Assembly: GCA_947085425.1 (NCBI GenBank)
Contig: CAMTWK010000026.1
Location: forward strand, 6,507 to 70,506
Direction: 5' to 3'
Source of the DNA: an uncultured Burkholderiales bacterium
GTDB lineage: Bacteria > Pseudomonadota > Gammaproteobacteria > Burkholderiales > Usitatibacteraceae
DNA: 64,000 bases
In this document: piece after piece, positions 17,666 to 40,292 of the stretch
Layout of the letters: each line of letters begins with the position of its first letter
How positions within the stretch are numbered: position 1 is the stretch's first letter
Program-made: the position numbers and the translations under genes
Notes under the pieces: generated by a model
Databases searched by the model: none
What the model saw: only the letters and a program-made list of their open reading frames with translations
Told to the model about the DNA's origin: nothing

Positions 17666-17679
17666 TTGCTACGTTTTTT

Positions 17680-20321: not shown

Positions 20322-20350
20322 TTATATGTCCAAAAAAAACTGCAAAAACG

Positions 20351-21015: not shown

Positions 21016-21746
21016 ACGTTTGCCTCCTTGATTGTCCGCACCCACGCGTTGTTTTTTTCCCGCTCAAGGATGATGGCGCGCACCCGGCACAAGGCAATCG
21101 CAATCGCGTACATCCAACACGCCAATGCCATGATCAACATGGCCAACAGCATGGTCGCCGCCATTTTATTGCCCTGGCTGATCGATACCGAGGCCCCCTG
21201 ATGCAGGGTATTCCACCACTTCACCGAAAAATAAATGATCGGCACATTCACCGAACCGACCAGCACCAACAATGCACCGGCCTTGTCGGCGCGCTTTTTG
21301 TCTTCAATCGCATTGACCAAGGCAAGATAACCGACATACAAAAACAACAGGATCAGGGTTGAGGTCATGCGTGCATCCCACGCCCAATAAGTACCCCAGG
21401 TCGGCCTGCCCCACAACGCTCCGGTCCATAATGCCAGCGCCGTAAATATGGCGCCAGTAGGCGCCAGTGCTTCGATCATCATTGACGATAAGCGCGTTTG
21501 ATAGACCAGCGACAACACCGCATAACCGGCCATCACCAGATAAATGAACATCGCCATCCATGCAGTCGGCACATGGATAAAAATAATCCGATACACCTCT
21601 CCCTGCTGAAAATCTTCAGGGGCGACAAACAAACCCAAATAAAGTCCGGCCACACACAACAAACTTGCCAACGCGCCAAACCACGGCACCATTTTACCGG
21701 CCAGGGGATAAAACGACGAAGGAGCGGAATATTTAAACAGGCTCAT
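21012..21746 (-). CDS. ccmC: Haem exporter protein CcmC
   Basis: 244 aa with six TM helices and the WGTYWAWDARMTS tryptophan-rich motif. Confidence 0.95.
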   Translation of the reverse strand: MSLFKYSAPSSFYPLAGKMVPWFGALASLLCVAGLYLGLFVAPEDFQQGEVYRIIFIHVPTAWMAMFIYLVMAGYAVLSLVYQTRLSSMMIEALAPTGAIFTALALWTGALWGRPTWGTYWAWDARMTSTLILLFLYVGYLALVNAIEDKKRADKAGALLVLVGSVNVPIIYFSVKWWNTLHQGASVSISQGNKMAATMLLAMLIMALACWMYAIAIALCRVRAIILEREKNNAWVRTIKEANV

Positions 21747-21758
21747 GTTAATCCAGTC

Positions 21759-22466
21759 TTAATCCAAAGAAATTTTCACCGCTGCCGCAACCGCAAATGG
21801 CACTGCAACCATCCCCGACAGCGCCAGCGCCGCCAATAACGATAAATTTGCCGCCGCATCCAGACCGGTCATGGTGGACTCCACCGCACCCGCACCAAAA
21901 ATCAGCACCGGAATGTAAAGCGGCAAAACCAACAAGGCCATCAAAATTGAGCTCCCGCGCACCCCGAGCGTGAGTGCCGCGCCGATCGCGCCCAACATCG
22001 TCAAAACCGGGGTACCCAGTAATAGACCGGCAAACACCACCAACAGTTCCTTCGCATCCAGACCAAATTGCAAACCCATCAACGGCGACACCAACGCCAC
22101 CGGCAAGCCGGTGGTGAGCCAATGCGCAACCATTTTACCGCCACACAGCAATGGCAGTGGATAACGCGATAACACCAATTGTTCCAACGTGCCATCCAGA
22201 TAATCCTGCTGAAACAAGCGCGGCAGCGTCAGCAGCACGGCGAGCAAGGCGCACACCCACACCACACCGGGGGCAATTCGTTTCAGCAGCACGGTTTCCG
22301 GGCCGATTGCCAGTGGAAACAAACTCACCACGATGACAAAAAATACCAGCGCCTGCACCAGCTCGCCACGTGAACGCATGGCGAGTTTGATGTCGCGGGC
22401 GGCTGCGACCAGCAGTCCGCGCTCCGGAGTTTGCAATTCAAATTCAGCTGGCGTCTGGACTTTCAT
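21759..22466 (-). CDS. ccmB: Haem exporter permease CcmB
   Basis: 235-aa polytopic protein located between ccmA and ccmC; it contains LVFFVIVVSLFPLAIGPE. Confidence 0.9.
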   Translation of the reverse strand: MKVQTPAEFELQTPERGLLVAAARDIKLAMRSRGELVQALVFFVIVVSLFPLAIGPETVLLKRIAPGVVWVCALLAVLLTLPRLFQQDYLDGTLEQLVLSRYPLPLLCGGKMVAHWLTTGLPVALVSPLMGLQFGLDAKELLVVFAGLLLGTPVLTMLGAIGAALTLGVRGSSILMALLVLPLYIPVLIFGAGAVESTMTGLDAAANLSLLAALALSGMVAVPFAVAAAVKISLD

Positions 22467-23098
22467 CGCGTTATCTCCTGCATCACCAGTTCTTTGACCC
22501 GGCCTTGCAACGGCAGGGCCAAATGTGTGGCGATGACAGCGATACCGCCGCGCGTCAAATGGGCATCGACCGTTTGCAGCAGCAAAGCCACGCCGGCATC
22601 ATCAAGCGCGTTGGTCGGCTCATCGAGTAGCCACACCCTGCGGTCACTAAGTAACAGTCTGGCCATGCCGATGCGGCGCTTTTGCCCCTGTGACAATTTA
22701 CGGCCGATCACCTGTCTGCGGCCCAGCAAGCCGACCTGATTTAACGTTTCCAGCCGTACCGCAAGTGTGGTGTTGATGGTATCCAGCGCCAATTGATCGG
22801 CCAGATTTTCCTCGGCGCTGAGTTCGTCCTTTAACGCATTGGCATGGCCGACGTACAACACCGCCGCACGATGCAGCGGCGACAACATGGCCAATTTTTG
22901 GTCGTTGAGATAAACCTCCCCCCCGTCCGACGCGGCCAATCCGGCCAACAGCCGCAACAAACTGGTTTTACCCACGCCATTGGGACCGCGCAGAATCAAC
23001 GCCTCGCCGGGCAGCACCTCAAACGACAAGTCGGCAAATAAAAAACGTTCGCCGCGCTTAAGCGTGAGCGCAGCCGCGCGCAGCCGGGCGGCTGTCAC
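22463..23098 (-). CDS. ccmA: Cytochrome c biogenesis ABC ATPase CcmA
   Basis: 211 aa with Walker A GPNGVGKTS, signature LSQGQKRR and Walker B VWLLDEP. The GTG start overlaps the ccmI TAG by 1 nt. Confidence 0.9.
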   Translation of the reverse strand: MTAARLRAAALTLKRGERFLFADLSFEVLPGEALILRGPNGVGKTSLLRLLAGLAASDGGEVYLNDQKLAMLSPLHRAAVLYVGHANALKDELSAEENLADQLALDTINTTLAVRLETLNQVGLLGRRQVIGRKLSQGQKRRIGMARLLLSDRRVWLLDEPTNALDDAGVALLLQTVDAHLTRGGIAVIATHLALPLQGRVKELVMQEITR

Positions 23099-24486
23099 TA
23101 TGGGACAACCTTGTTGATGGTGATGTTCACCTTTGACGCCGACGGTTTGACGGCGGTACTCACACCAACAAAATCACCGGGCTTTAAGACTGCATCACCG
23201 GCTTTGGAAATGCGCGCCTCAATGGTCACCGACTCAAACGACGACAAACTCATACCCGATGTCATGGCCATGGCATCGGTTAATGAATAGGCATGCGGCC
23301 AAACCGCCGGTGCACCGATCCGTAACACCGCCAGCGGCATTTTCGGGCCATCGGTCGCGCGTGCCAATACAAACATGATGTCGCCTTTGGCCAGTTTCGC
23401 CTTGAGTTCCGGCGCGAGATCAATTTGCCCTGACACGGTTTTTCCGGCCGCAGCCGTCGCAGGACCTGGATCGGCAGGCGGTGCGGCGGCTGGCGCTGAT
23501 GGTGCGACAGGCGCGGGTGTGATGGCGGGCGCGGGGGCCTGCCGCGCGCTTTCCACCTGTGGCTGCTGCGGAAAAGCCGGTTGACCGGTTTTGATTTCGT
23601 TGATGATGGCAGTGACTTGTACAAAATCATCCGAATCCCTGGGCACCAACGATTTTAGTTTTTCCCAACTTTTGAGTGCCGCCGTTTTATTGCCGGCGCG
23701 CATGTCGGCGGTGCCGGCCAGGGCCAGCGCCTTCATATTGTTGCCGTCAATTTTTAATGCCTGCAAAATAAGTTGGCGTGGTTTGCCCTCAAATACGCCG
23801 TCTTGCAGCATCACCTCGGTATCGGCGTAATCAGCAAGCAACTGCGCATCATTGGGTGCAAGCGCGACCGCACGGGCAAAGGCTTTGGCCGCCAGGGCAT
23901 ATTGCCCGAGCGCGTTTTGCGAACGCGCCAACAGCACCCAACCCTTTGGATCGTTCGGGTTTTCTTCCATTTTCCGCGCCAAGTTTTCCACCAGCGCCAA
24001 CACTTGTTTATCCGACATGGCGGCATCGGCCGGAGTGGACGGCTCCGTCGCCGATGGTGACGTGGCCAGCATGGTGCCGGCGTGGCTCCCTTGGGCACCC
24101 TGGTAGCCTCCCCAATACATATAACCAAGGGTGGCACCCACCACGACAAACAACGACACAACAATTGCCAGCGTCCACGCCGGTTTCGCGGCATTATTTA
24201 CTGAAGGTGCAGGCCCATCCTGATCTTTCACTTCCAAGCTCACCTCGCCGACCATACGCGTGGCCAGCTCATCGAGGGCGCGATCACGCGCGGATTCGTC
24301 AATCAATCCGCGTTGAAACTCCGTTTCAATCTCCTGACTTTGCAAACGAAACGCGGCCAGATTGGCCGACTCGGTGGAAATGTCGCCCGCCACCACGTCT
24401 TGATCGGTAAAACGATGGCGCAATATCGGAAACAACACAAAAACCAGCGCCAGCAACAGCATGATGGAAGCAATCACATAAAACAT
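23098..24486 (-). CDS. ccmI: c-type cytochrome biogenesis protein CcmI (CycH-like, TPR)
   Basis: Lies in ORF 23098..24531(-), with ATG 24486 (MFYVIASIMLLLALVFVLFPIL). Two TM helices are followed by TPR repeats (GWVLLARSQNALGQYALAAKAFARAVALAPNDAQLL) and a Pro/Ala linker. It is unusually placed first in the operon. Confidence 0.8.
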   Translation of the reverse strand: MFYVIASIMLLLALVFVLFPILRHRFTDQDVVAGDISTESANLAAFRLQSQEIETEFQRGLIDESARDRALDELATRMVGEVSLEVKDQDGPAPSVNNAAKPAWTLAIVVSLFVVVGATLGYMYWGGYQGAQGSHAGTMLATSPSATEPSTPADAAMSDKQVLALVENLARKMEENPNDPKGWVLLARSQNALGQYALAAKAFARAVALAPNDAQLLADYADTEVMLQDGVFEGKPRQLILQALKIDGNNMKALALAGTADMRAGNKTAALKSWEKLKSLVPRDSDDFVQVTAIINEIKTGQPAFPQQPQVESARQAPAPAITPAPVAPSAPAAAPPADPGPATAAAGKTVSGQIDLAPELKAKLAKGDIMFVLARATDGPKMPLAVLRIGAPAVWPHAYSLTDAMAMTSGMSLSSFESVTIEARISKAGDAVLKPGDFVGVSTAVKPSASKVNITINKVVP

Positions 24487-24838
24487 AAGTTCAGGCCGAG
24501 AAAGAAATAGACTGACATTATAGCCAGCCACACTCTGTCAGGTTGAAATTTGCTGTCGGTCACCACATCGGCTTTTGTAACCGCCATGATTTGGCTGGTC
24601 GAAATTGCAAAATAATGACGCTTAACTTCAAATACCGCCATTTTTGGATAAACTAATCACGGCGCATGATTTACAAATTATAAAATTACGCCTCTGCTTC
24701 TTCGTATACAGATCCGGCCATTCAACTTTTTAAAAATCGTTCGTGCCGCTTGGAGCATCCGATCGGCTCTGCCAAGGATAGGCAATACAGTCAGCGTATG
24801 GTTTGTATGGTTTGCGCAGGTTGTGCCAAAAAAAACAA

Positions 24839-25678
24839 ATGCCCCATCAGACAGTTCTGGAATACCGGCACTACCGTTATTTAAAAATTGCGCTGCTGGT
24901 CATCGTCACCTCGATCGCCGCGTACGTGTTTCAAGACGCGCCGGTTGGTCGATACGGCGGTACGCCGGTGGGATATGCGTTGGGCATCGCCGCTGCCGCC
25001 GTCGTTTTTTGGCTGATGTGGTTCGGCGTGCGCAAACGTCAATACACCGGGTCCAAAACAACTTTACAAGGCTGGTTATCCGCCCACGTTTATTTGGGTG
25101 CGGCGCTGATTATTATCACCACCTTGCACGCTGCGTTTCAGGTGGGTTGGAATATTCATACGCTGGCGTATTTGTTGTTATTGATCGTTATCGCTTCCGG
25201 TTTTTTTGGCGTCTATGCCTACCTGCGATTTCCAACCATGCAGACCAATAACCTCGGTGATGAAACCCTCAACGCGGTGTTATTACGCATAGGTGACCTC
25301 GACAAAGAAGCGCAGCGGCTGGTCATGACCCTGCCCGACAAATTTAATCAAGCCGTACAGCAAAGTGTGCAGTACACACTTATCGGTGGCAGCGTACGCA
25401 ACCAATTACGACTCAAACATCCCGATTGCCCGACCAACAAAGCCATCCCCATTCTGGAAGACCAAACCAACAAAGCGGAATTGAACATCGAGCAGGCGCA
25501 GACCTTGCACGCGCTTTATAGCGTGATGTTACGCAAACAAAAAGCGGTCGTGCGCGCCCGCCGCGACATTCGCTTCCGGGCGATGATGCAAGTCTGGCTG
25601 TACGTGCATGTGCCGCTGTCATTTTGTTTATTGGCGGCGTTGATTGCGCACATCATCTCTGTGTTTTTTTACTGGTAA
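24839..25678 (+). CDS. Five-TM membrane protein with two H-x13-H pairs (putative di-haem b-type transmembrane electron carrier)
   Basis: Lies in ORF 24803..25678, with ATG 24839 (MPHQTVLEY). TM3 is SAHVYLGAALIIITTLHA (His83/His97) and TM5 is YVHVPLSFCLLAALIAHI (His257/His271). Each pair is spaced by exactly 13 residues, as in ferric-reductase/YedZ-type bis-haem helices. Confidence 0.6.
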   Translation: MPHQTVLEYRHYRYLKIALLVIVTSIAAYVFQDAPVGRYGGTPVGYALGIAAAAVVFWLMWFGVRKRQYTGSKTTLQGWLSAHVYLGAALIIITTLHAAFQVGWNIHTLAYLLLLIVIASGFFGVYAYLRFPTMQTNNLGDETLNAVLLRIGDLDKEAQRLVMTLPDKFNQAVQQSVQYTLIGGSVRNQLRLKHPDCPTNKAIPILEDQTNKAELNIEQAQTLHALYSVMLRKQKAVVRARRDIRFRAMMQVWLYVHVPLSFCLLAALIAHIISVFFYW

Positions 25679-25690: not shown

Positions 25691-27487
25691 GTGAAGCTAC
25701 TTCTCGCCCGTCTCAACCGCAATAAACAAGGACAGGTCGCCCGCACCGATGAAATTCTTGAGTCCGAGTCAATTCCGATCGGGCGCGGCAGTGACTGCAA
25801 ATTACATTTACCCGACCCGCGCGTGGCCTTACATCACGCCGTCATTCAGAAAGGCGCGGCCGACAGAATCAGCATTGACGCCACCCAGGGAGTGATTGCA
25901 ATTGATGGCCGGTCCGAGCGTGCATCGTTGCTCAAAACCGATCTGCTGATCAAACTTGGCCCCTACACTATCATCGTGTTGCCGACGCCGGACGATGTGG
26001 ATGTCGCCATATCGTTGGAATTGACCGAACCTTTGGCCGATCGCACCGAAGCAACCATACAAGCGCAAAAAATCGCCTCTGCCGGACTCGGCTCAACCTG
26101 GCTCTCCAAACGCCGGATGTCCTGGCTGCTTGCGGGCGTGGTTGCCCTGATTTTTATAATCTGGCCGATCTGGCATGTCGTGAATACCGACACCCATATA
26201 GTCGGCGAAAAAAAGCTCGCCAAGATCACCGCAGATGCGTCTTGGGATCCCGGTCCGCTTGATAGTGGTCATACCAGTTTTGGCCGCGATTGCATTCGCT
26301 GCCACCAAACGCCGTTTGTACAGGTCAAAAACGAAACCTGCGAATCCTGCCATAAATCCATCGGCTGGCATTTCGCATTGGAAACGGCGGCGGCCAAACA
26401 ACTGCACACCAACGTGTTTAGTACCGATGGCAGCGAGGGAAGATGTGCAGCTTGTCACCGTGACCACAAAGGCAAAAATGCACTGAAGCGACAAGATTCG
26501 CCCTTGTGCACAGATTGCCACCGCGATCTTAAAACCCGCCATAACGAGGTGGCCTCACCCAATATTGGCGACTTTAAGAAGGATCATCCGGCGTTTAAAT
26601 TGTCGATGCTGGTTGCAGGCAAAACCGGCAAAGACGCGGTCATACGGGTATCACAGAGCGACAAAAACAAACTGGTCGAAAAATCGAATTTGAAATTTCC
26701 GCACGATGTGCATCTGTCCGAAAATAATCGGGACGGTGTGCGCAGCCCGGGTGGCAAACGCGCCATGGAATGCAAAAATTGTCACGTGCCGGATGAAACC
26801 GGCACACGTTTTAAGCCGGTGACGATGAAAGAACATTGTCAGGATTGTCACTCACTTGAATTCGAACCAACGGCAACCAGCCGACAGGTGCCGCACGGCA
26901 AAGTTGATGATGTGATCGCGACCATCAATGAGTTTTATGCGCAAGCGGCCTTCATGGGCAAAACGATTGACCAGCCACCGTCAAAAATTTGGCGGCCGGG
27001 TGATGAGCCACGTACCGGTCCGGATAAAAATATCGCCTGGGTCAATCAAAAAGCCAAGGCCATCACCACCGAGATGATGGAAAAACGGGTTTGTTTTGCC
27101 TGCCATGAAATCACCCGTGTTGGTGTCGGTGCGGCACAATCATGGCATATCGCACCCATTGCCGTGACCAGACACTGGTTGCCGAAGTCCCGTTTCCCAC
27201 ATAGTCAGCACGCGACCTTTAGTTGCAAGAAGTGCCACGACGTTGAAAAGTCGCAAACCAGTGCGGATATTGCCATTCCGGATTTGGCCTCCTGCCAATC
27301 GTGTCACTCCGGCAATGTGCCCGAACAAGATAAAGCTCCCGGCAGCTGTGAAAGTTGTCACGGCTTTCACACCGGCGGCACCCGCGCCGGGGTACCGGTG
27401 GTACTACCCAAATTAAAAGATGTCGCCATTACCACCCGTTCCGGAGTGTTTAAACATCCAACCAGCACCCGTCCAGCGGCCAAATGA
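25691..27487 (+). CDS. FHA-like domain / single TM / periplasmic decahaem c-type cytochrome fusion
   Basis: 598 aa with a GTG start. Residues ~25-100 are FHA-like (IPIGRGSDCKLHLPDPRVALHHAVIQ...IDGRSE...IKLGPYTIIV). KRRM precedes the TM WLLAGVVALIFIIWPIWHVV. There are ten CxxCH: CIRCH, CESCH, CAACH, CTDCH, CKNCH, CQDCH, CFACH, CKKCH, CQSCH, CESCH. Confidence 0.85.
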   Translation: MKLLLARLNRNKQGQVARTDEILESESIPIGRGSDCKLHLPDPRVALHHAVIQKGAADRISIDATQGVIAIDGRSERASLLKTDLLIKLGPYTIIVLPTPDDVDVAISLELTEPLADRTEATIQAQKIASAGLGSTWLSKRRMSWLLAGVVALIFIIWPIWHVVNTDTHIVGEKKLAKITADASWDPGPLDSGHTSFGRDCIRCHQTPFVQVKNETCESCHKSIGWHFALETAAAKQLHTNVFSTDGSEGRCAACHRDHKGKNALKRQDSPLCTDCHRDLKTRHNEVASPNIGDFKKDHPAFKLSMLVAGKTGKDAVIRVSQSDKNKLVEKSNLKFPHDVHLSENNRDGVRSPGGKRAMECKNCHVPDETGTRFKPVTMKEHCQDCHSLEFEPTATSRQVPHGKVDDVIATINEFYAQAAFMGKTIDQPPSKIWRPGDEPRTGPDKNIAWVNQKAKAITTEMMEKRVCFACHEITRVGVGAAQSWHIAPIAVTRHWLPKSRFPHSQHATFSCKKCHDVEKSQTSADIAIPDLASCQSCHSGNVPEQDKAPGSCESCHGFHTGGTRAGVPVVLPKLKDVAITTRSGVFKHPTSTRPAAK

Positions 27488-29397
27488 TGCGCGCTCAAAT
27501 ATTTTCAACCAGTCTCGTCTGCAGTCTGCTATTGATTGCCTGCTCGGGCGGCGGTGGTAATGAGACAACTGTTTGTCAAACAAATTGCACACCACCGGCG
27601 GCACCAGCAGTCGATGCACTGTCCGTGGCCGATGTTGAGCGGGTGATTGCGCAGGCCGCGTCCGAAGCAAACGCACGCAGTCAGCGCGCCACCATTGCCG
27701 TGGTGGATCGGGTTGGTAACGTATTGGCCGTGTACCGCATGAATGGTGCCGCCACCACCTTTCGCATCAGTAGTGGCCGCGGCGTGAATGGCGGCTTGGA
27801 AAACATCGACATTCTGCCGGATGGCCTTGCGGCCATCAGCAAGGCCATTACCGGCGCCTATTTATCCTCCAACGGCAATGCATTTTCATCGCGCACCGCC
27901 AGCCAGATTGTGCAGGAGCACTTTAATCCGCGTGAACTTAATCAACCGAGTGGCCCGTTATACGGTGTGCAGTTTTCGCAATTGCCGTGCTCGGATTTAA
28001 TGCGCCGCGCCAGCGACGGCAGCGTTGGCCCGAAGCGTTCACCATTGGGTCTGTCCGCCGATCCGGGTGGCTTGCCACTCTACAAAAACAATCGGCTGGT
28101 GGGCGGTGTGGGCGTGATTGCCGATGGTGTTTATGGCCTCGATCTCGACGCCACCGACATTGATCAAAGCATCGACGAATTGATCGCGGTGGCCGGTACC
28201 AGCGGATTCGCCGCACCGGATGATATTCGTGGCAATCGCATTACCGCCGATGGTCGCACCTTTCGTTTTGTAGACTCTGAATCGCTGCAGTCCAACCCGG
28301 CACAAGCGCCTGCCCTGGCGGCAATCAGCGGCGCACTTATTTCAGTCGGTGGCTATTTTGACGGCGCGATACGTTTCGGCACCTCGTTTGGCAACGCCGC
28401 ATCGGGCTATCGCGCTGCCACCTCCACTGATCCCAGCCAGTTGGTGGCGCAAAGTGCATTTGTATTGGTGGACGCGGCCAACAACAATCGTTTTGCAGCC
28501 CGCGCCGGTACCGATGGTCTGATCACACTGGCCGAAGCCACCACCATTGCCAGCGAAGCCATCAAAGTCGCCAATCGCACCCGCGCACAAATTCGCCGAC
28601 CACTGAATACCCAAGCACAAGTGACCGTGTCGGTGGTCGATACCAACGGCAACATTCTGGTCATCGCCCGCACACCGGACGCCCCGATCTTTGGCACCGA
28701 TGTGAGTTTGCAAAAAGCCCGCACCGTCATGTTGTTTTCGCATCCAAATGCCGCCAGCGATCTTTCAGCCCTGCCCAACATCACCTACCTGGGTGCCGGC
28801 GGTAACCCGGTCGGTGGTGCGCGTACGTTTGCGCAAACCATTACCGCTACACGATCATTTTTTAACGACCCTGCCATGCTGTCGAACGGGATCGCGTTTT
28901 CCAATCGCGCCATCGGCAGCATCGCCCGCCCCTATTTTCCGGATGGCATTATCGGCACCAGTGCCGGCCCCTTGTCATCATCCATCACCAGTTGGAGCCC
29001 GTTTAATGTCGGCTTACAACTCGACCTGAGTTATAACGCCATCATTGCAGCCGCGTCCAGCCCAACCGGTGACTCAGTTACCGGTGGCTGCACCGGGTTA
29101 TCCAAGGCAAGAAATGGTATCCAGATTTTTGCCGGGGCGGTGCCGATTTATCGGGGCAACCAATTGGTTGGTGCCATAGGTGTTTCCGGTGATGGGGTCG
29201 ATCAGGACGACTTGATTTCCTTTTATGGCCTGCATAACGCGGGCGTGGTTCTCAACACCAACATCGGCAATGCGCCCAAACCAATACGTGCCGATAATTT
29301 AGTCCCGCAGGGACTCGGCACCCGTTTACGTTACGTGCAATGCCCGGTCGCGCCGTTTATCAACGGCAGCGAACAAAACGTTTGTGAGGGTTTGTGA
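27484..29397 (+). CDS. Lipoprotein with two GlcG/DUF336-like (haem-binding/'haem-degrading' fold) domains
   Basis: 637 aa with a lipobox LLLIAC followed by SGGGG. Domain 1 is ATIAVVDRVGNVLAVYRMNGA...GGLPLYKNNRLVGGVGV. Domain 2 is VTVSVVDTNGNILVIARTPDAPIFGTDVSLQKA...GAVPIYRGNQLVGAIGVSGDGVDQDD. The ATG overlaps the upstream stop (ATGA). Confidence 0.7.
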   Translation: MMRAQIFSTSLVCSLLLIACSGGGGNETTVCQTNCTPPAAPAVDALSVADVERVIAQAASEANARSQRATIAVVDRVGNVLAVYRMNGAATTFRISSGRGVNGGLENIDILPDGLAAISKAITGAYLSSNGNAFSSRTASQIVQEHFNPRELNQPSGPLYGVQFSQLPCSDLMRRASDGSVGPKRSPLGLSADPGGLPLYKNNRLVGGVGVIADGVYGLDLDATDIDQSIDELIAVAGTSGFAAPDDIRGNRITADGRTFRFVDSESLQSNPAQAPALAAISGALISVGGYFDGAIRFGTSFGNAASGYRAATSTDPSQLVAQSAFVLVDAANNNRFAARAGTDGLITLAEATTIASEAIKVANRTRAQIRRPLNTQAQVTVSVVDTNGNILVIARTPDAPIFGTDVSLQKARTVMLFSHPNAASDLSALPNITYLGAGGNPVGGARTFAQTITATRSFFNDPAMLSNGIAFSNRAIGSIARPYFPDGIIGTSAGPLSSSITSWSPFNVGLQLDLSYNAIIAAASSPTGDSVTGGCTGLSKARNGIQIFAGAVPIYRGNQLVGAIGVSGDGVDQDDLISFYGLHNAGVVLNTNIGNAPKPIRADNLVPQGLGTRLRYVQCPVAPFINGSEQNVCEGL

Positions 29398-31265
29398 TGC
29401 GGCCGGCTTGGACATTGCCGAATAAGCCGTGCCAGGTGGTGTCCCTACACGCGCTGTTGCTGGTTTGTGCCGGCACTTGTGTCATGGATGTCGCGGCGTT
29501 TTCGCCACCAGCGTTAACGGCGCCACAGCAATTAGCCCCCACACCAGTGGACGAGGCCGAACCAATTGTGCGTTCGCGTGCACCGTCGGACACACGCACA
29601 CCCATGAAATATCCATTACCGCCCATCGACCCGACAAAAGTCGATGCGCCGACTCCTATGGATATTCGTCAATCCATCTCAGTGCCGGACCGCTGGCGCA
29701 TTATGGATTCGCTTGGGTTCAAATTTCCATGGTACGACCCGTATAACCACAACGTCTGGAAGGGTGACAAACCATTTCCACCGTTTGCCAAATTGCACGG
29801 TGGCAACAACAACGACTGGTTCTTGGCGCTGTCGGTGATTTCCGATTCGCTGATCGAGACGCGTCGGCTGCCGCTGCCGGTTGGCGCACAGTCGTCGTTG
29901 CGACCGGACGCGAACAATGTGTTTGGCCGTGGCAAACAAACGGTTTTTGTCGAGACCGTCATCCTGTCAGCGGCAGTGATCAAGGGAAACACCACCTTTC
30001 GCCCGCCCGACTACGAATTCCGTTTTGTGCCGGCCTTTCAAATCAACCATGCCCGCATCGGGGAGGTGCGCGGGTTAAAAATCGATCCGCGCCTTGGGAA
30101 GAGTCGCACCGACCGCCATTTTGCAGTGCAGGAATTATTCGGCGATGTGCATTTGCGCAACGTCTCCGACCATTACGATTTTGACTCGCTGCGGGTGGGC
30201 ATTCAGCCGTTCATTTCCGATTTCCGTGGTTTTGTTTTCCAAGATGTGCCGTTCGGCGTGCGCCTGTTTGGCAATCGCGACAACAATTTTTGGCAGTACA
30301 ACGTTGGTTATTTCCGGCGCATGGAAAAAGACACCAATAGCGGCCTCAATGACTTCAGCCAAAAAATGCGCCGCGATCATTTGTTTGTCGCCAATGCCTA
30401 TCACCAGGATTTTCCGGTCATCGGCCATACCACGCAGGCAACCATCATTCACAACGTCAACCGTGAATCAGCGGCGGATTATTACGATCGCAACGGCTTT
30501 TTGATCCGTCCGGCGGTGATTGGTGACGCACGACCGCGCAACTACAACGTGACTTATGTGGGGTTGAGCGGCGACGGGCACATCGATCGATGGAATCTGA
30601 CCACCTCGGTGTACGGCGCGTTCGGCACCGATCAGCGCCATCCGCTGGCGCAGAAAAAGCAAACCATTCGCGCCGGTTTCGCCGCCGCCGAACTTTCCCG
30701 CGACTTCAGCTGGCTGCGGGTGCGCGGCAATGCGCTGATTGCCAGCGGCGACAAAAATCCGTTTGACGGCAAGGCGACCGGCTTTGATGCCATTTTCGAA
30801 AACCCGCAGTTTGCCGGTGCCGACACCAGTTTTTTTATTCGCCAGGCGATTCCCCTACTCGGCGGCGGTGGCGTGGCCTTATCACAACGTAACGGTGTGT
30901 TGCCGTCGCTGCGCTCCTCCAAGGATCAAGGCCAATCGAATTTTGTCAATCCCGGCCTAACTTTGATTGGTATGGGCGCGGACGCGGACCTCACACCACG
31001 TATTCGACTGATTGCCAATATTTCCAAGCTCAATTTTATAAACACCTCGTCACTTTCGGTGTTGCGCAATCAACACGTCACGTCAAAAAATCTCGGAGTT
31101 GATATTTCGGCAGGTGTGCAAATCCGACCGGTCATGAGCCAGAACATCGTGCTCAACATTTCCGGCGCGGCGCTGCTTCCCGGCCGCGGACTCAAACAGT
31201 TGTACGATGAAGACAAACGTGGGCCGCAATATTCCGTGTTATTTAACTTGATCCTGACCTATTGA
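29394..31265 (+). CDS. Putative outer-membrane beta-barrel protein (no haem motifs)
   Basis: 623 aa with a signal-like N-terminus. Alternating hydrophobic patterns are frequent, and the C-terminus YSVLFNLILTY ends in an aromatic residue, as in OMP beta-signals. The start overlaps the upstream stop (GTGA; ATG 29397 is the alternative). Confidence 0.5.
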   Translation: MMRPAWTLPNKPCQVVSLHALLLVCAGTCVMDVAAFSPPALTAPQQLAPTPVDEAEPIVRSRAPSDTRTPMKYPLPPIDPTKVDAPTPMDIRQSISVPDRWRIMDSLGFKFPWYDPYNHNVWKGDKPFPPFAKLHGGNNNDWFLALSVISDSLIETRRLPLPVGAQSSLRPDANNVFGRGKQTVFVETVILSAAVIKGNTTFRPPDYEFRFVPAFQINHARIGEVRGLKIDPRLGKSRTDRHFAVQELFGDVHLRNVSDHYDFDSLRVGIQPFISDFRGFVFQDVPFGVRLFGNRDNNFWQYNVGYFRRMEKDTNSGLNDFSQKMRRDHLFVANAYHQDFPVIGHTTQATIIHNVNRESAADYYDRNGFLIRPAVIGDARPRNYNVTYVGLSGDGHIDRWNLTTSVYGAFGTDQRHPLAQKKQTIRAGFAAAELSRDFSWLRVRGNALIASGDKNPFDGKATGFDAIFENPQFAGADTSFFIRQAIPLLGGGGVALSQRNGVLPSLRSSKDQGQSNFVNPGLTLIGMGADADLTPRIRLIANISKLNFINTSSLSVLRNQHVTSKNLGVDISAGVQIRPVMSQNIVLNISGAALLPGRGLKQLYDEDKRGPQYSVLFNLILTY

Positions 31266-31266
31266 A

Positions 31267-34200
31267 ATGAAACAAAACTCGTTTATGGGTAAGCCTTTTC
31301 AAGCAAAAATGTTCGTGAACGCGCTGCTGTGCTTGAGTTTGCTCGGCGCCGCTGTTGACACCACTGCCAGTGGCGGCGAAAAGCCGGTGGCGCGCAGCTA
31401 CGCGGTGACGCCGGCTGCGCCGGCGCGGCAATCGGTCATGGACGAATCACAAAAGTCATTTGGCTGTGTGTCGTGTCATACCACCACCGATCGCCATACC
31501 ATGCACGCCAATCCCGGTGTGGTGATTGGTTGCACCGATTGTCACGGCGGTGACGCCAAAGTGGTCAAGCCTGCCAATGTGGTTCGCACCGGTCAAGGGG
31601 AAAAACAATACGCAGAGTTGATGGCCAAGGCGCATATCCTGCCGCGTTTTCCCGCTGCCTGGAATACCCCGTCCAGCTCCAACCCGGAGTCAACCTACAC
31701 ACTGCTCAATCGTGAAGCGCGTGAGTTTGTGCGATTTATCAACCCCGGTGATTTACGTGTCGCCCGTGAAGCCTGCGGCGCCTGCCATCTGGAAATTATT
31801 CAGGCGGTCGAACGCAGCCTCATGTCAACTTCGGCGATGTTATGGGGCGGCGCATCGTATAACAACGGCATTCTTCCCTATAAGCGTTACATCCTCGGCG
31901 AAGCCTATACCGCCAATGGTGTGGGTGCGTTACTAAAGAATCCGGTGCCGGTCACCCCGCACATGACCGCGATGGGCATTCTGCCGTCACTCGCACCCTT
32001 ACCCGCCTGGGAAACGATTCCACCGGGTGATGTGTTCCGGGTGTTCGAGCGTGGCGGCCGGGTGATCAACACACAATTCCCCGAAGTCGGATTACCCAAC
32101 GTCAGCGGCGCGTTGCAAAAGCTGGATGAACCCGGCCGGCCGGACATCAAACAATCCAATCGTGGCCCCGCCACCGGTCAGCGAATCGCCGTACCGGTCA
32201 TCAACATCACCAAAACACGCCTCAACGATCCCCACCTGTGGTTCTTGGGCACCAACGAACAACCGGGTGACTATCGCTCCTCGGGTTGCACCGCCTGCCA
32301 TACCATTTACGCCAACGACCGCGACCCCAAACACAGTGGTCCGTATGCAAAGTTTGGCAACGAAGGCAAGAGTCAGAGCAAAGACCCCACCATCGACAAA
32401 ACCAAATCCGGCAGTCCGCTCAAACACGAGTTCACCCGCGCCATTCCCTCGTCGCAGTGTATGGTTTGCCATATGCACCAGCCCAACATATTCGTGAATT
32501 CGTTTTATGGCACCACCATGTGGGACTACGAAGCCGATGCGCCACAAATGTGGCCGAAAAAACAAAAGTACCCGACCGCCAAAGAATCGTTTGAGATTTT
32601 AAAACGCAATCCTGAGGAAGCGGCCACTCGCGGCCTGTGGGGCGACCGCGATTTCCTCAAACGCATCTGGGAAAACAACGACAAAAAGAAAGACACCCAG
32701 TTCGCCGATTACCACGGACACGGCTGGAACTTTCGGTATGTGTTCAAGCGTGATCGCAAAGGCACACTGCTCGATAAAAACAATGCGCCGGTGGCCGATA
32801 CCGATCCAAAAAAATTCGACAAGGCGGTACACCTGACCTCGATTCACCTCGACGTTGGCATGCATTGTGTGGATTGCCACTTCTCGCAGGACGTGCACGG
32901 CAACGGCCATATTTATGGCGAGGTGGCGGCGGCGATCGAAATTGATTGTATCGACTGCCACGGCACCGCCGACAAATTGCCAACACTGTTTACCTCCGGC
33001 CCGGCGGCCTCGCCGCAAGGTCGCGATTTACAACTGATGCGCACGCCGGATGGCCGCAAACGATTTGAGTGGATCAACGGTGACCTGTTTCAACGTTCGA
33101 GCCTCGATCCGAAACTCGAATGGAAAATGACCCTGGTAAAAAATAGTGTGACGCCTGGCAATGCCAAGTACAACGAAAAGGCGGCGCGCGCAAAATTAAT
33201 GCACAGCGGTGCATCGGGACGCGATGGGAATTGGGGGCCGGGTAGTACACCAACCCAATCGGCAGCAAACGATTACGCCCACAGCAACGAAAAAATGACT
33301 TGTTACACCTGCCATCTTTCCTGGACCACCTCGTGTGCGGGTTGCCATTTGCCGATTCAGGCCAATGCCAAAACCGATAAACAACATTACGAAGGGGGCG
33401 AATCACGCAACTACGCCACCTACAACCCGCAAGTGGCACGCGACGATATGTTTCAGCTGGGTCGCCACGGCCCGGTCAAAGGCAGCCGTATTGCACCGGT
33501 GCGCTCCAGCTCGGCGTTGGTCCTGTCGTCGATGAATGCCAATCGTGAGCGTATTTATATCCAACAGCCGCCGATTGCCGCAAGTGGCTTTTCCTCACAG
33601 GCGTTCGCACCACACTACCCACACACCGAACGCAAAACCGAAACCAAAACTTGTAGCGACTGCCACGCCGCACGCGACGGCGACAACAACGCCATCATGT
33701 CGCAGCTGTTGTTACACGGTACCAACTACGTAAACTTTGTCGGCTTTAATGCATGGGTGGGCTCCGGCAAACACGTTGAAGCCGTACAAGTCACCGAATG
33801 GGACGAACCGCAGGCGGTGATTGGTAGTTATTTACACAAATACGCCTATCCGGATTGGTTTCAGAATCATCAAAAAGCCGGAAAAAAACTGCAACTGCAT
33901 CATTCACAAAGCACCGGTGGTCAGGCCGGCTGTGTGCAATTGCGCGGCGAATATTTGTTCGTCGCGGAAGGTGCGGGGGGCTTTCGGGTCTATGACGTCG
34001 CCTCGATTGCCAACAAGGGCATCTCGCAACGCATTATCTCGGCGCCGTTTTCACCGTTGGGACAAAACACCAACGTACCATCCAAAAATGCCACTTGTAT
34101 GGCTCTACCCACCAATCAAGCCATTGCACCGGAGCGCAACCAAGGCGACTTGATGCGCACCACCAATCAAGAGCAGGCGTTTCATCCGATTTACCACTAC

Positions 34201-35109
34201 GCATTTGTGGTCGATGCGGAAGAGGGCTTGATTGTGGTGAACGTGGATACGCTGGCGGATGGTGAGCCGCGCAATAATTTCCTGAAACGCGCCGCAACCT
34301 GGAACGAAGGCAATGTGCTCAAAGGTGCACGCCACATCGTATTGGGTGGGTATTACGCCTACGTGGCAACCGACAGTGGTCTGGTGGTATTAAATTTGAA
34401 CGATCCGCTTAAACCGAAGGTGGCGGCGAGTCTGCCTCTCGACAATATTCGAGCCTCTGCGTTGCAATTTCGTTATCTGTTTGTGACCACCGCCAAAGGC
34501 TTGGAAATCATCGACATCACCGACCCGAACAAACCCGCCGTCAAGGCCGGTGTACCGCTCGCTGATGCACGCCGCGTCTATGTGGCACGCACCTATGCCT
34601 ATGTGGCGGCCGGGCGTGATGGCTTGGTGATTATCGATGTCGAAAAACCAGAACAGCCGCGCCTATACACAAGCTTTACCTCTGGTGACGGCATCAATGA
34701 CAGTCACGACGTGATTGTTGGCTCGACCAACGCTTCGTTGTTTGCTTATATCGCCGACGGCAAGAATGGCCTGAAGGTGCTGCAACTCACTTCACCGGAT
34801 TCACAACCCAAGTTTTACGGTTTCTCACCCGAACCCAAGCCCGAGCTGATTGCCTGGCGTAAAACCGATTCACCGGCGCTGACCCTGGCAAAAGGGCTGG
34901 ATCGGGATCGGGGTGTCGATGAAACCGGTGGACAGATTGCCGTATTTGGACGAATTGGTTCACGGCCGTTTAATCGCGGCGAAATGGATAAGTTTTACCT
35001 GACACCGGAAGGTAAATTGTGGACCGTGACCGACGCCATCGAGACTGGAAAATTTGTACCGCTATCCGCGATAGTGGCCGCACCAACGGCGAGCGGAGGA
35101 GCACGGTAA
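31267..35109 (+). CDS. Secreted 1280-aa decahaem c-type cytochrome with a C-terminal LVIVD-repeat beta-propeller region
   Basis: The signal peptide is MFVNALLCLSLLGAAVDTTA. There are ten CxxCH: CVSCH, CTDCH, CGACH, CTACH, CMVCH, CVDCH, CIDCH, CYTCH, CAGCH, CSDCH. The C-terminal ~400 aa carry repeated GLxVxxxxDPxxP units: GLIVVNVDTLADGEP, GLVVLNLNDPLKP, GLEIIDITDPNKP, GLVIIDVEKPEQP, GLKVLQLTSPDSQP. Confidence 0.85.
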   Translation: MKQNSFMGKPFQAKMFVNALLCLSLLGAAVDTTASGGEKPVARSYAVTPAAPARQSVMDESQKSFGCVSCHTTTDRHTMHANPGVVIGCTDCHGGDAKVVKPANVVRTGQGEKQYAELMAKAHILPRFPAAWNTPSSSNPESTYTLLNREAREFVRFINPGDLRVAREACGACHLEIIQAVERSLMSTSAMLWGGASYNNGILPYKRYILGEAYTANGVGALLKNPVPVTPHMTAMGILPSLAPLPAWETIPPGDVFRVFERGGRVINTQFPEVGLPNVSGALQKLDEPGRPDIKQSNRGPATGQRIAVPVINITKTRLNDPHLWFLGTNEQPGDYRSSGCTACHTIYANDRDPKHSGPYAKFGNEGKSQSKDPTIDKTKSGSPLKHEFTRAIPSSQCMVCHMHQPNIFVNSFYGTTMWDYEADAPQMWPKKQKYPTAKESFEILKRNPEEAATRGLWGDRDFLKRIWENNDKKKDTQFADYHGHGWNFRYVFKRDRKGTLLDKNNAPVADTDPKKFDKAVHLTSIHLDVGMHCVDCHFSQDVHGNGHIYGEVAAAIEIDCIDCHGTADKLPTLFTSGPAASPQGRDLQLMRTPDGRKRFEWINGDLFQRSSLDPKLEWKMTLVKNSVTPGNAKYNEKAARAKLMHSGASGRDGNWGPGSTPTQSAANDYAHSNEKMTCYTCHLSWTTSCAGCHLPIQANAKTDKQHYEGGESRNYATYNPQVARDDMFQLGRHGPVKGSRIAPVRSSSALVLSSMNANRERIYIQQPPIAASGFSSQAFAPHYPHTERKTETKTCSDCHAARDGDNNAIMSQLLLHGTNYVNFVGFNAWVGSGKHVEAVQVTEWDEPQAVIGSYLHKYAYPDWFQNHQKAGKKLQLHHSQSTGGQAGCVQLRGEYLFVAEGAGGFRVYDVASIANKGISQRIISAPFSPLGQNTNVPSKNATCMALPTNQAIAPERNQGDLMRTTNQEQAFHPIYHYAFVVDAEEGLIVVNVDTLADGEPRNNFLKRAATWNEGNVLKGARHIVLGGYYAYVATDSGLVVLNLNDPLKPKVAASLPLDNIRASALQFRYLFVTTAKGLEIIDITDPNKPAVKAGVPLADARRVYVARTYAYVAAGRDGLVIIDVEKPEQPRLYTSFTSGDGINDSHDVIVGSTNASLFAYIADGKNGLKVLQLTSPDSQPKFYGFSPEPKPELIAWRKTDSPALTLAKGLDRDRGVDETGGQIAVFGRIGSRPFNRGEMDKFYLTPEGKLWTVTDAIETGKFVPLSAIVAAPTASGGAR

Positions 35110-36503
35110 TGAATCTGACCCAAAATTTTTCCCGTCAATGGCTGAATGGTTGTGTGGCCATCATGACCATTACTGCCATCGGCTGCGCCATGTTGCTGCC
35201 GTTGCACGCCGCTGCCGCCACCACCGCGGTGACAAACACATCCTCACCGCTGCTGCCGTATCAGTCGCCACACAAAACAGAAGGCGCAGTGACCTGCGCC
35301 TCGTCGCTTTGTCATGGCGCAATTACCAGCTGGAAAGACTCCAACGTTTTACAAAATGAGTACATCACCTGGAGCCGGCTCGACAAACACGCCCGCGCCT
35401 ACAACGTCTTGCTCAATGATCAATCAAAACTGATCGCAAAAAATCTCGGTCTGACGGAACCGGCGCATCAGGCAAAAATTTGTCTCGATTGCCACGCCCA
35501 CAATATTCCCGCCGCACGACATGGCGAACGATTTACCTTACAGGACAACATCACCTGTGAAGCTTGCCACGGTCCGGCCGAAAAGTGGTTGCGTCCACAC
35601 GTTGAACCCAACGCCAGCCATGCAAAAAATATTTCCTTGGGCCTGTACCCGACCGACGATCCACAGGCGCGCGCGAAATTATGTTTATCCTGCCACTTCG
35701 GCAACAAAGACAAACTGGTCACCCATCGCATCATGGGTGCCGGCCATCCACGCATGAGTTTTGAGTTGGAAAACTTTACCGCGTTGGCACCACGCCACTT
35801 TACCGTCGACAAAGACTACAGCCAACGCAAACGCGTCTGGGATGGCCTGAAAGTCTGGGCGATCGGCCAGGCATTGGCCGTCAGTGCCACCCTCGATATT
35901 CTCAACGACGACAAACTCGGTCGCGATGGTTTGTTCCCGGAATTGGTGCTGTTTGATTGCCACGCCTGCCACCGGCCGATGTCGGAAAACCGCCTGCAGA
36001 CCACCACCCCACTCGGCACCCGTGCCACGCCGGGTTTGGTGCGTTTAAACGACGCCAATATGTTGATGCTGCGGGTGATTGCGCGCGCACTCGATCCGGC
36101 ATTGGGTGAGAAGGTATCTGCTCATACCGTTAAGTTGCACCGCGCAATTGCCGGCGACGGTGACACACGCCAAGCAGCGACCCATTTGCAATCGTTGGCG
36201 GAAAACGTCGTCAATCTGATTGAAGCGAAAAAAATTGACGGTCCATTCATGACCTCGATCGCGCTGGGTTTGGTGGATGACGGCATTAAAGGTCTGTATC
36301 GCGACTACAGCTCCGCAGAACAAGCTGCGTTGGCGATTTCATCGGTGGGGCAATTCATGGCCAAACATGATGTGATGAAGTCACCAACCGCCTTTAATCG
36401 CGAATGGCAGAAACTCAACGCAACACTCAAACACGATGAAAAATTCAAACCGGAAGAGTTTGTTTCCGGACTCAGGGCGTTACGGCCCACCTTGGTTAAG
36501 TGA
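35109..36503 (+). CDS. Periplasmic multihaem c-type cytochrome (4 CxxCH + 1 CxxxxCH)
   Basis: Lies in ORF 35019..36503. ATG 35109 overlaps the upstream TAA (TAATG). The signal peptide is IMTITAIGCAMLLPLHAAAA. Haem motifs are CASSLCH, CLDCH, CEACH, CLSCH and CHACH. Confidence 0.8.
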   Translation: MNLTQNFSRQWLNGCVAIMTITAIGCAMLLPLHAAAATTAVTNTSSPLLPYQSPHKTEGAVTCASSLCHGAITSWKDSNVLQNEYITWSRLDKHARAYNVLLNDQSKLIAKNLGLTEPAHQAKICLDCHAHNIPAARHGERFTLQDNITCEACHGPAEKWLRPHVEPNASHAKNISLGLYPTDDPQARAKLCLSCHFGNKDKLVTHRIMGAGHPRMSFELENFTALAPRHFTVDKDYSQRKRVWDGLKVWAIGQALAVSATLDILNDDKLGRDGLFPELVLFDCHACHRPMSENRLQTTTPLGTRATPGLVRLNDANMLMLRVIARALDPALGEKVSAHTVKLHRAIAGDGDTRQAATHLQSLAENVVNLIEAKKIDGPFMTSIALGLVDDGIKGLYRDYSSAEQAALAISSVGQFMAKHDVMKSPTAFNREWQKLNATLKHDEKFKPEEFVSGLRALRPTLVK

Positions 36504-38924: not shown

Positions 38925-39057
38925 GAGTCCGCGCGGACCCCTGGCTTGCGAGGCACTTCGCCTCTTTGGTTTTGGCGGAGGGCGTGGGTGCAGCGTTCCG
39001 CGTGGTTCGGCGTGGTGTAAGCAACACCCCGCAAAATGTCGGCAGCGGCGGCCTTGA

Positions 39058-39215: not shown

Positions 39216-39328
39216 AGTTGAACCAGCGAAGTGGTTTTATCGCAGCAATAAAACCGTTGAATTGCGGAGCGCTCCGCAAGTCAACGGTTTCTCAACCGGT
39301 TCACACTTAACACAAGTACCTGATTTTA

Positions 39329-40282: not shown

Positions 40283-40292
40283 CTTGGGCTAT

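Follow-up and report, generated by a model that had tools for sequence, protein, structure and literature searches.

A decahaem cytochrome with a C-terminal LVIVD beta-propeller and its conserved seven-gene module in an uncultured Burkholderiales bacterium

Beta-propellers co-encoded and co-expressed with outer-membrane multihaem cytochromes have been described in Desulfovibrio ferrophilus (DFE_0448-0451 and DFE_0461-0465) and in 'Ca. Tenderia' (uetABCDEFGHIJ), where a stabilisation of the complex or a role in protein-protein contacts was proposed for them (PMC5815863; bioRxiv 10.1101/2022.05.06.490989). Furthermore, ExtM of Geobacter (GSU2935), a functionally uncharacterised cytochrome with 12 haems, belongs to a gene cluster with a cytochrome b, a Rieske protein and a porin (PMC5877670). 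The gene considered here lies in a stretch of 64,000 nucleotides (nt) from an uncultured Burkholderiales bacterium of the Usitatibacteraceae (contig CAMTWK010000026.1 of assembly GCA_947085425.1, positions 6,507 to 70,506 of the forward strand), hereafter the window. Its product of 1280 amino acids (aa), hereafter the target, is, judged from its sequence, an exported decahaem c-type cytochrome with a C-terminal LVIVD beta-propeller. The propellers of D. ferrophilus and Tenderia consist of NHL repeats and are encoded by separate genes, whereas that of the target is of the LVIVD type and is fused to the haem domain in every intact relative. Regarding ExtM, it was the best-scoring named family for the target, with a local similarity round haems 6-7 (aa 524-573), and it is likewise a large multihaem cytochrome encoded near a cytochrome b and a porin-like gene (PMC5877670), but it carries 12 haems instead of ten and no propeller. 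No description of an LVIVD-multihaem fusion, or of the seven-gene module to which the target gene belongs, was found in the literature searched, and no curated family model naming such a fusion was found either; the literature on Tenderiales Uet, Nitrosomonas Mtr, FoxY and the activated-sludge secretome proved unrelated to the fusion and to the module. The reading that is tentatively preferred here, at somewhat less than an even chance, is that the target is the outer-membrane-associated end-member of a conserved, envelope-spanning electron-transfer system encoded by those seven genes.

The open reading frame of the target starts with ATG, and the ten CxxCH motifs that an earlier note on this DNA had counted were all recovered, neither more nor fewer (aa 67, 89, 170, 341, 398, 534, 561, 679, 690 and 796). 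They contain 20 of the 23 cysteines of the protein, while 20,000 shuffled versions of the protein had 0.013 CxxCH on average and never more than 1. Moreover, exactly ten motifs were present in all 76 complete homologues from genome loci, and each of the ten was kept in at least 35 of the 36 sequences of a wide alignment reaching down to ~41% identity. In this alignment, 11 further His outside the motifs (conserved in at least 34 of 36) and an invariant Met (M186) were found in the haem domain, which are predicted to be enough for ten six-coordinate haems, and neither CxxCK nor long CXnCH variants of the haem motif were found in the target. A Sec-type signal peptide was read from the sequence, with a putative cleavage site, and no canonical lipobox was detected in the target; lipobox-like strings appeared in 12 of 77 homologues, where they were neither aligned nor conserved. 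Several conserved CxxCH motifs in an exported protein, by which a multihaem c-type cytochrome is recognised, were thus present, and a cytochrome c maturation (ccm) operon is adjacent. The haem domain is spacious, with ~83 residues per haem and long non-haem inserts. Its AlphaFold2 model (aa 36-878) was unusable, with a predicted local distance difference test (pLDDT) score of 37.8 and a predicted template modelling (pTM) score of 0.25, being built on a shallow alignment (32 sequences, homologues at >= ~70% identity).

The LVIVD signature that had been noticed in the C-terminal part was confirmed by the PF08309 hidden Markov model (HMM), which scored 70.3 bits (E = 8.5e-20) against a gathering cut-off of 20.2. 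As to the number of units, previously given as at least five, the five that had been quoted were recovered, their G standing at aa 987, 1038, 1078, 1119 and 1168, but a sixth had been overlooked: YLFVAEGAGGFRVYDV (aa 890-911, G at aa 904), which precedes the others. All six follow the pattern Y-[AL]-[YF]-V-x4-5-G-[LF]-x-[VI]-[VIL]-x-[VIL], and LVIVD units are characterised as tandem stretches of ~40-50 aa folding as propeller blades. In agreement with this, the AlphaFold2 model of aa 841-1280, built on 32 homologues, was all-beta with at least six four-stranded sheets (pLDDT 74.9, pTM 0.74), its pLDDT being mostly >90 over aa 1020-1140. A Foldseek search of the PDB with this model yielded 676 matches at E <= 1e-3, and all 50 of those listed were chains containing a beta-propeller, including seven-bladed WD40 propellers, eight-bladed BamB, cd1 and Tako8, at identities of 7-16%. 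On the model, then, the propeller is real and its topology generic, with 6-7 blades. As to the cell surface, where the LVIVD family is described to be located, the indications for the target would be its Sec signal peptide and the outer-membrane barrel gene next to it.

The nature of this propeller bears on the main rival explanation, which ranks as unlikely but ahead of the other alternatives: that the target is a periplasmic multihaem oxidoreductase with a soluble substrate, its propeller holding the substrate or the catalytic site in the manner of cytochrome cd1 nitrite reductase or hydrazine synthase, with the barrel encoded next to it acting as a channel for substrate or product and the other cytochromes of the module feeding in electrons. 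The propellers of cd1 nitrite reductase indeed appeared among the Foldseek matches (ranks 23, 35 and 46), and the target has no lipobox; however, these matches are generic (8-16% identity), and the wide alignment of 36 sequences showed no invariant His, Cys or Met in the propeller that could hold a metal or a cofactor of the haem d1 type. Its invariant residues were the structural Asp of the repeats and a few Arg, Lys and Tyr, so that it looks like a docking or binding module instead of a catalytic metal site. Furthermore, the supply of His and Met, predicted to suffice for ten six-coordinate haems, together with the lack of CxxCK and long CXnCH motifs, would argue against an enzyme. By analogy with the propellers of D. 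ferrophilus and Tenderia, the propeller and the tail that follows it may be read together as a docking or binding module. The motif of this tail (Table 1) was invariant or near-invariant in 32 homologues, and R1213, D1214, R1215, D1218, E1219, R1229, R1233 and E1239, comprising an RDR..DE motif, were kept in at least 34 of 36 sequences, while part of the tail had a pLDDT <50 in the isolated propeller model. An interface with a partner is suggested for it. No C-terminal sorting signal was detected in the target, the last ~20 residues of which were not conserved.

A word-indexed search returned 8000 candidates, of which 7998 were significant clusters at 90% identity, and the best 120 clusters had lengths of 1192-1331 aa, were 70-90% identical to the target and were named, if at all, 'hypothetical protein' or 'LVIVD repeat'. 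The earlier note had considered that homology to a known enzyme class would overturn its reading, and none was detectable by sequence among PDB chains, NCBIfam and Pfam. Searches of the PDB chains by phmmer and by hmmsearch with the family profile gave nothing at E < 0.5 (chance level), and no NCBIfam model reached its own cut-off. The closest was that of ExtM (NF040943, an equivalog model of 599 positions), with 73.7 bits against 800 and a best stretch of 50 residues, and the choice-of-anchor B model (TIGR04312) gave 26 bits against 100, below what membership requires. Among the Pfam models, Cytochrome_C7 was barely over its cut-off (25.0 vs. 24.8), and the MtrC/MtrF domain II/IV (PF22113) gave 23.4 bits against 30, over aa 67-179 only. 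Membership of the MtrC/OmcA type was not indicated by any NCBIfam MtrC/OmcA match or by any PDB match to MtrC, OmcA or UndA, and homology to NrfA, HAO/octahaem, OTR or MccA proteins was detected in none of PDB, Pfam and NCBIfam. By every test run, the target would therefore stand outside the NrfA, HAO, OTR, MccA and MtrC families. The absence of any sequence relation to NrfA, HAO, OTR, MccA, cd1 or another solved enzyme counts against a soluble-substrate oxidoreductase, while it counts in favour of one that ExtM, the nearest named relative, has been found in the periplasm as well as in membranes (PMC5877670).

It had also been proposed to look for the haem and propeller parts as separate genes, and none were found. 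Representatives at 50% identity, 1.84 billion in all, were searched exhaustively by HMMER with aa 1-860, which gave 2813 matches at E <= 1e-3, most of the listed ones being gene fragments. The fusion was present in all 15 intact representatives covering the whole haem domain, with a downward limit of ~41% identity, and the five of them scanned with Pfam (41-47% identity) had LVIVD scores of 37.7-85.1 bits. Six representatives spanning the haem domain stopped short of the end of the propeller; the four inspected (P0124, P0156, P0173 and P0186) could be rejected as stand-alone haem-domain genes, as they were frameshifted assemblies ending in Arg-/Ala-rich junk, two of them still holding the first blade, and the very short entries P0232 and P0253 were left out of that inspection. 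Hence, no intact stand-alone haem domain was found among the 50%-identity representatives examined. Moreover, a distant relative of 1648 aa (P0134) had 28 CxxCH motifs, with an N-terminal extension giving strong c7-/c3-type matches before the decahaem domain and the LVIVD propeller; such a number of motifs would be expected for a wire.

The target gene is the fifth of a compact block of seven genes on the + strand, separated by gaps or overlaps of -4 to +12 nt (Table 1). It is translationally coupled both to the barrel gene upstream and to the gene of a 4-5-haem cytochrome downstream. The 1-nt gap to an OMP-like gene reported in the earlier note was found as described, since the upstream gene ends at 31265, and the outer-membrane character of its product was borne out as well: all 69 homologues end in Y, F or W, with the motif YS.L.N..LTY/F, and 4 of 11 members gave weak matches to Alginate_exp (PF13372; best E = 5e-4). 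The window copy itself had no Pfam or NCBIfam match at E <= 0.01, the HMMs of MtrB/PioB-type families gave no match to the barrel at E <= 0.01, and searches of the family against the PDB by sequence and by profile produced chance-level matches only. A crude scan, which gives no strand count, found ~26 alternating amphipathic 9-mers. The sole family signal of the barrel is that of narrow AlgE-type channels, which speaks for the target being an oxidoreductase served by a channel, as does its lack of a lipobox; on the other hand, genes for cofactor biosynthesis are absent from the module. In some lineages (homologues L024, L047 and L060), the barrel carries an extra N-terminal bacterial SH3 domain (PF08239, PF06347), suggesting a contact on the periplasmic or peptidoglycan side.

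Table 1. Features of the 64,000-nt window, with positions counted from its first nucleotide
Feature	Position	Strand	Remarks
Target gene	31267..35109	+	
Target, Sec-type signal peptide	31267..31371	+	aa 1-35; read from sequence, cleavage inferred
Target, haem domain	31372..33846	+	aa 36-860; ten CxxCH
Target, LVIVD beta-propeller	33919..34851	+	~aa 885-1195; six sequence units, 6-7 blades
Target, conserved C-terminal tail	34852..35046	+	aa 1196-1260; includes GLDRDRxVDETGGQIAVFGRIGSRPF
Dihaem cytochrome b-like membrane protein	24839..25678	+	five predicted transmembrane helices, ~120 aa cytoplasmic loop
Inner-membrane-anchored decahaem cytochrome c	25691..27487	+	FHA-like cytoplasmic N-terminus, one transmembrane helix, ~430 aa periplasmic part with the ten CxxCH
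Lipoprotein with three HbpS-like (PF03928) domains	27484..29397	+	start overlaps preceding stop by 4 nt
Outer-membrane beta-barrel protein, 623 aa, distantly AlgE-like	29394..31265	+	immediately upstream of target
Periplasmic 4-5-haem cytochrome, 464 aa, c554-like	35109..36503	+	ATG overlaps target stop (TAATG)
Cytoplasmic flavoprotein, 802 aa	36516..38924	+	Pfam and NCBIfam matches
Terminator-like hairpin	38948..38964	+	24 nt past last module gene; consensus match only
Complete System I cytochrome c maturation operon (ccmI/cycH, ccmA, B, C, E, F, ccmG-like redoxin, ccmH)	16969..24531	-	divergent from module; Pfam
Hybrid histidine kinase, 1021 aa	10578-13643	-	vitamin-uptake-like sensor (VUPS), PAS, GAF, HisKA, HATPase, receiver; 11 kb from module
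C5 DNA methylase	40284-41291		in low-GC stretch, with DUF6641 gene
Integrase-like gene	42595-43176	-	in low-GC stretch
Integrase-like gene	44780-46039	-	in low-GC stretch
tRNA-Met gene	46190-46266	-	end of low-GC stretch
ADP-forming acyl-CoA synthetase-like and GNAT fusion, 922 aa	46531-49299	+	Pat-type protein acetyltransferase architecture; unrelated to target

The predicted products of the other genes would occupy the successive compartments of the envelope, so that cytoplasmic, inner-membrane, periplasmic and outer-membrane members are predicted to make up the module. The lipoprotein matched PF03928 with 89 bits over three stretches, and at least 41 of its 61 homologues have a lipobox (LIAC/LAGC/LGSC) with a Gly-rich linker behind it. 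As no His is conserved, the role of a haem carrier, which was considered for it, is unlikely. The 464-aa cytochrome, which has a Sec signal peptide and no conserved lipobox, kept four CxxCH motifs in all 70 homologues (PF13435, E = 1.3e-7), and an extra CxxxxCH (CASSLCH, C63/C68/H69), found in >=90% of 71 sequences, may be a fifth haem site of non-standard spacing; the last 170 aa of the protein are helical, with little conservation. In the membrane-anchored decahaem, ten CxxCH motifs were present in 53 of 54 homologues, with Pfam matches to Cytochrome_C7 and c3. Its FHA domain is borderline (20.6 vs. 20.7 bits) and is missing in the Limnobacter, Methylopumilus and Silanimonas copies. The FHA-like pattern IGRG..C.L.L.DPRV.L.HA.I (window 25691-26150, + strand) lacks the usual Ser of the FHA S-x-x-H, and the topology of the protein resembles that of YscD of type III secretion systems (PF16697 match of 21.9 bits).

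The cytochrome b gene was called mechanically as an open reading frame from TTG 24803, ATG 24839 being the likelier start. In the numbering from the TTG, its product has two pairs of His (H95/H109 and H269/H283), each 14 residues apart within a transmembrane helix and near-invariant (53-54 of 54), a spacing by which two haems b stacked through the membrane are recognised. All 12 members examined matched the cytochrome b561 family (PF01292) below the cut-off (best E = 1.1e-5), and 3 of 12 matched Ferric_reduct weakly. The flavoprotein combines an FAD and NAD(P)H domain like that of YpdA/thioredoxin reductase, two CRP-like domains binding cyclic nucleotides (cNMP) and a HydN/DmsB-like ferredoxin with four Cys clusters; its sequence shows two dinucleotide motifs of the GxGxxG type and no signal or Tat peptide. 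A pairing of the flavoprotein with the cytochrome b is suggested by the coupling of their genes, and their relations to characterised families are limited to sub-threshold HMM matches.

The cytochrome b lends itself to a different reading, namely energy-conserving anaerobic respiration to extracellular acceptors, fed by quinol, in which it would be a quinol dehydrogenase like CymA, ImcH or CbcL and the flavoprotein a cNMP-responsive regulator or a side input. Besides the membership of the cytochrome b in the PF01292 superfamily and the two CRP-like sensor domains of the flavoprotein, the set of membrane decahaem, periplasmic cytochrome, barrel and large outer cytochrome mirrors the parts of CymA/MtrCAB and of the porin-cytochrome systems of Geobacter. 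Nevertheless, this respiration is judged very unlikely, as the Fe-S domain is of the HydN/DmsB/FdnH type, which docks onto membrane cytochromes b, as the gene coupling of flavoprotein and cytochrome b persists where the module is split (see below), and as the hosts include strict aerobes, Sphingobium being one by its physiology. The flavoprotein went undetected in 12 of 71 loci, which counts in favour of a quinol-fed route.

To assess the distribution of the module, one genome per GTDB species was scanned, and a relative of the target was found in at least 589 species-level genomes; synteny, taken from the best 80 loci of these, was kept in nearly all of them. The best 80 span Beta-, Gamma- and Alphaproteobacteria and Acidobacteriota, in largely aerobic lineages, and include Burkholderiales, Usitatibacter, Limnobacter alexandrii, Silanimonas lenta, Arenimonas, Fontimonas, Parahaliea maris and Halioglobus, as well as Methylobacter, Steroidobacter, Rhodospirillaceae, Kiloniellales, Vicinamibacteria and other Acidobacteriota. 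The copies are annotated as hypothetical or generically throughout. Counting for each partner only the loci with a long enough flank, the barrel was upstream of the target in 69 of 69 loci, the lipoprotein was present in 61 of 62, the membrane decahaem in 55 of 57 and the small cytochrome of the 464-aa type in 70 of 72, the cytochrome b was in the expected position in 53 of 55, and the flavoprotein was present in 59 of 71. Beyond the seven genes, the flanks vary from genome to genome.

The order of the genes is informative in some lineages. In gamma and alpha lineages, the gene immediately before that of cytochrome b is the flavoprotein gene, and homologues of the target also occur on megaplasmids of Sphingobium and Sphingopyxis. 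The module of S. herbicidovorans MH forms two blocks, one with the small cytochrome, lipoprotein, barrel and target and the other with the flavoprotein, cytochrome b and decahaem, the stop of the flavoprotein gene overlapping the start of the cytochrome b gene, under generic PGAP names. Such a division points to separate outer and inner sub-complexes, with the flavoprotein linked to the cytochrome b. The blocks lie on opposite strands of pMSHV (L083, 794282-822187), a conjugative megaplasmid of 959 kb, and the module is flanked there by two transporters of the ShlB/FhaC type of two-partner secretion and by a hypothetical protein of 2092 aa.

The hosts and the cytochrome b also bear on the direction of the flow. 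The module could work inwards, the target oxidising a donor outside the cell or in the periplasm (for instance Fe(II), Mn(II), reduced humics or a mineral) and passing electrons through the cytochromes to the cytochrome b, the quinone pool and oxygen, as proposed for MtoAB, PioAB and Cyc2. Porin-cytochrome systems (MtrCAB, MtoAB) work in either direction, the hosts belong to largely aerobic lineages from soil, freshwater, glacier streams and groundwater, and the cytochrome b is related to the quinone-reactive cytochromes of the b561 and hydrogenase types, all of which count for an inward flow. However, its probability is put very low, a shade below that of the quinol-fed respiration, since a conserved cytoplasmic Fe-S flavoprotein of the NAD(P)H type, gene-coupled to the cytochrome b, has no role in the downhill oxidation of a donor, and a reverse flow to NAD(P)+ would need an input of energy. 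Moreover, none of the best 80 loci had the name of a recognised genus of Fe(II) oxidisers, and no cupredoxin or Cyc2-like partner was found in the module.

The outward route, in which the target is the outer-membrane end of the system, would run as follows. The cytoplasmic flavoprotein would oxidise NAD(P)H, and the electrons would leave through its FAD and then its four Fe-S clusters, traverse the inner membrane by way of the stacked haem pair of the cytochrome b, and be relayed by the membrane-anchored decahaem and the 4-5-haem cytochrome to the target, whose ten haems would receive them at the outer-membrane barrel and the lipoprotein. Here, the haem domain would work as a wire, a role read from the conserved His and Met that are enough for six-coordinate haems, on the assumption that the haems pack into a continuous chain, and the propeller would most likely dock the target to the barrel, the lipoprotein or a polymeric or solid acceptor, with no catalysis. 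Fe-S proteins paired with a dihaem cytochrome b are known from FdnH-FdnI and HyaA-HyaC, a design which would be inverted here, with the Fe-S side in the cytoplasm. As an outward flow of electrons and of protons derived from NAD(P)H would dissipate the membrane potential, a redox-balancing, metal-reducing or protective outlet would be likelier than an energy-conserving respiration. Counted in support of this route are the anatomy of the target, the retention of the fusion, the packing of the operon and the terminator-like site behind it, the synteny, the two blocks of S. herbicidovorans, the His pairs, the flavoprotein motifs, the conserved haem motifs and ligands beside a propeller without invariant His, Cys or Met, the relative with 28 CxxCH, the barrel signals, the adjacent ccm operon and the separate NHL-repeat propellers of known clusters. 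The terminal, possibly surface-contacting module that the earlier note had seen in the target is thus plausible, and only partly supported.

Several points weigh against the target being the outer end of an outward conduit. Localisation, complex formation and the direction of the electrons are predictions, and the haem chain is an assumption, the model of the haem domain having the low pLDDT given above. The AlgE-type barrels, to which the only family signal of the module barrel points, have 18 strands and are too narrow to house a cytochrome as MtrB houses MtrA, and the target has no lipid anchor, unlike MtrC. In addition, its identity to the window copy (median 70.5%, range 64-85% across phyla) was the highest in the module, the other members showing 34-60%; a target so much more conserved than its partners appears unlike the known surface cytochromes and typical of enzymes, fitting a buried, multi-partner or enzymatic role, and this conservation favours a periplasmic oxidoreductase. 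The same is true of its ~83 residues per haem and long inserts, a spacing that would be enzyme-like or MtrC-like and not that of a minimal wire. Furthermore, since the superfamily of the cytochrome b usually exchanges electrons with quinones, the flavoprotein may not be the donor, and its gene, as said, was missing from detection in 12 of 71 loci with enough flank. Finally, when the DNA upstream of the first gene was searched in 54 loci for FNR, CRP and Fur boxes, one relaxed match was all that emerged.

A bolder form of the outward route would make the module the diderm equivalent of the eukaryotic NOX/FRE ferric reductases, quinone-independent and regulated by cyclic nucleotides, leading from NAD(P)H through the dihaem cytochrome b and ~25 c-type haems to a surface-exposed target. 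This is held to be distinctly unlikely, less so than the two readings involving quinones and more so than the periplasmic enzyme. If true, it would represent an unrecognised extracellular reduction in largely aerobic Proteobacteria and Acidobacteriota of soil and freshwater, with Fe(III), Mn(IV), humics or oxygen (to superoxide) as candidate targets, and the module would then be one candidate answer to the open question of which NAD(P)H-dependent source makes the extracellular superoxide of bacteria.

Regarding the surroundings of the module, the ccm operon adjoining it is complete and divergent. A promoter scan gave no more sites than in shuffles. Homologues of ccmI and ccmA were found upstream of the module in many Burkholderiales loci and not in gamma or alpha loci. 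The operon may be a dedicated maturation system travelling with the module; System II is what many Betaproteobacteria use otherwise. The low-GC stretch that begins right behind the module (~39000-46270; 39-41% vs. ~53%) looks like a mobile island integrated at a tRNA gene. A recent horizontal acquisition of the module itself in this genome was considered and rejected, as its GC content (52-57%) equals the background of the window. The remaining genes singled out in the window, a sensor kinase and an acetyltransferase-like protein, are given in Table 1.

The family of the target is large, with more than 8000 clusters at 90% identity, widespread and uncharacterised, and its cultured aerobic carriers (Sphingobium herbicidovorans MH, Limnobacter alexandrii LZ-4, Silanimonas lenta DSM 16282 and Parahaliea maris) make the module amenable to tests in existing isolates. 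If the module is an electron outlet to the envelope or the surface, the capacity for extracellular electron transfer would extend to many common heterotrophs of oxic habitats, with parts unrelated at the family level to the Mtr or Geobacter systems, and it would provide a defined example of the coupling of an NAD(P)H flavoprotein through Fe-S clusters and a dihaem cytochrome b to multihaem cytochromes.

Compared with the known systems, the inner part of the module resembles FdnH-FdnI and HyaA-HyaC in that an Fe-S domain of the HydN/DmsB type is paired with a dihaem membrane cytochrome b; unlike in these, the Fe-S domain forms one polypeptide with an NAD(P)H flavoprotein and cNMP-binding domains and is predicted on the cytoplasmic side. 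A cytoplasmic Fe-S protein linked to periplasmic multihaem c cytochromes is also found in Hmc and Tmc of sulfate reducers, and by function NOX/FRE and Fre-MsrQ are comparable. The target itself, with an N-terminal c-type haem domain followed by a C-terminal propeller, is built like cytochrome cd1 nitrite reductase. However, cytochrome cd1, hydrazine synthase alpha and the quinohaemoprotein alcohol dehydrogenases have one or two c haems and a propeller that holds haem d1, pyrroloquinoline quinone (PQQ) or a catalytic haem, while the target has ten c haems, a propeller without conserved cofactor ligands and no sequence similarity to these enzymes. As in the porin-cytochrome conduits (Shewanella MtrCAB, Geobacter OmbB-OmaB-OmcB, MtoAB and PioAB), the barrel gene adjoins multihaem genes, one of which encodes a large decahaem, and an electron input at the inner membrane and a periplasmic relay are also encoded in the module; likewise, the weak PF22113 signal over the first three haems of the target recalls MtrC/MtrF. 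Nonetheless, the module differs from these conduits in lacking membership by HMM, with no NCBIfam match to MtrB/PioB or MtrC/OmcA, in a target without lipobox and with a fused LVIVD propeller, in a barrel that is distantly AlgE-like and not MtrB-like, and in the addition of a lipoprotein with three HbpS domains and of a cytoplasmic NAD(P)H Fe-S flavoprotein. Overall, the logic of the module is that of a variation on the theme of the porin-cytochrome or transmembrane redox complex, built, as far as its sequences tell, from parts that fall outside the known families.

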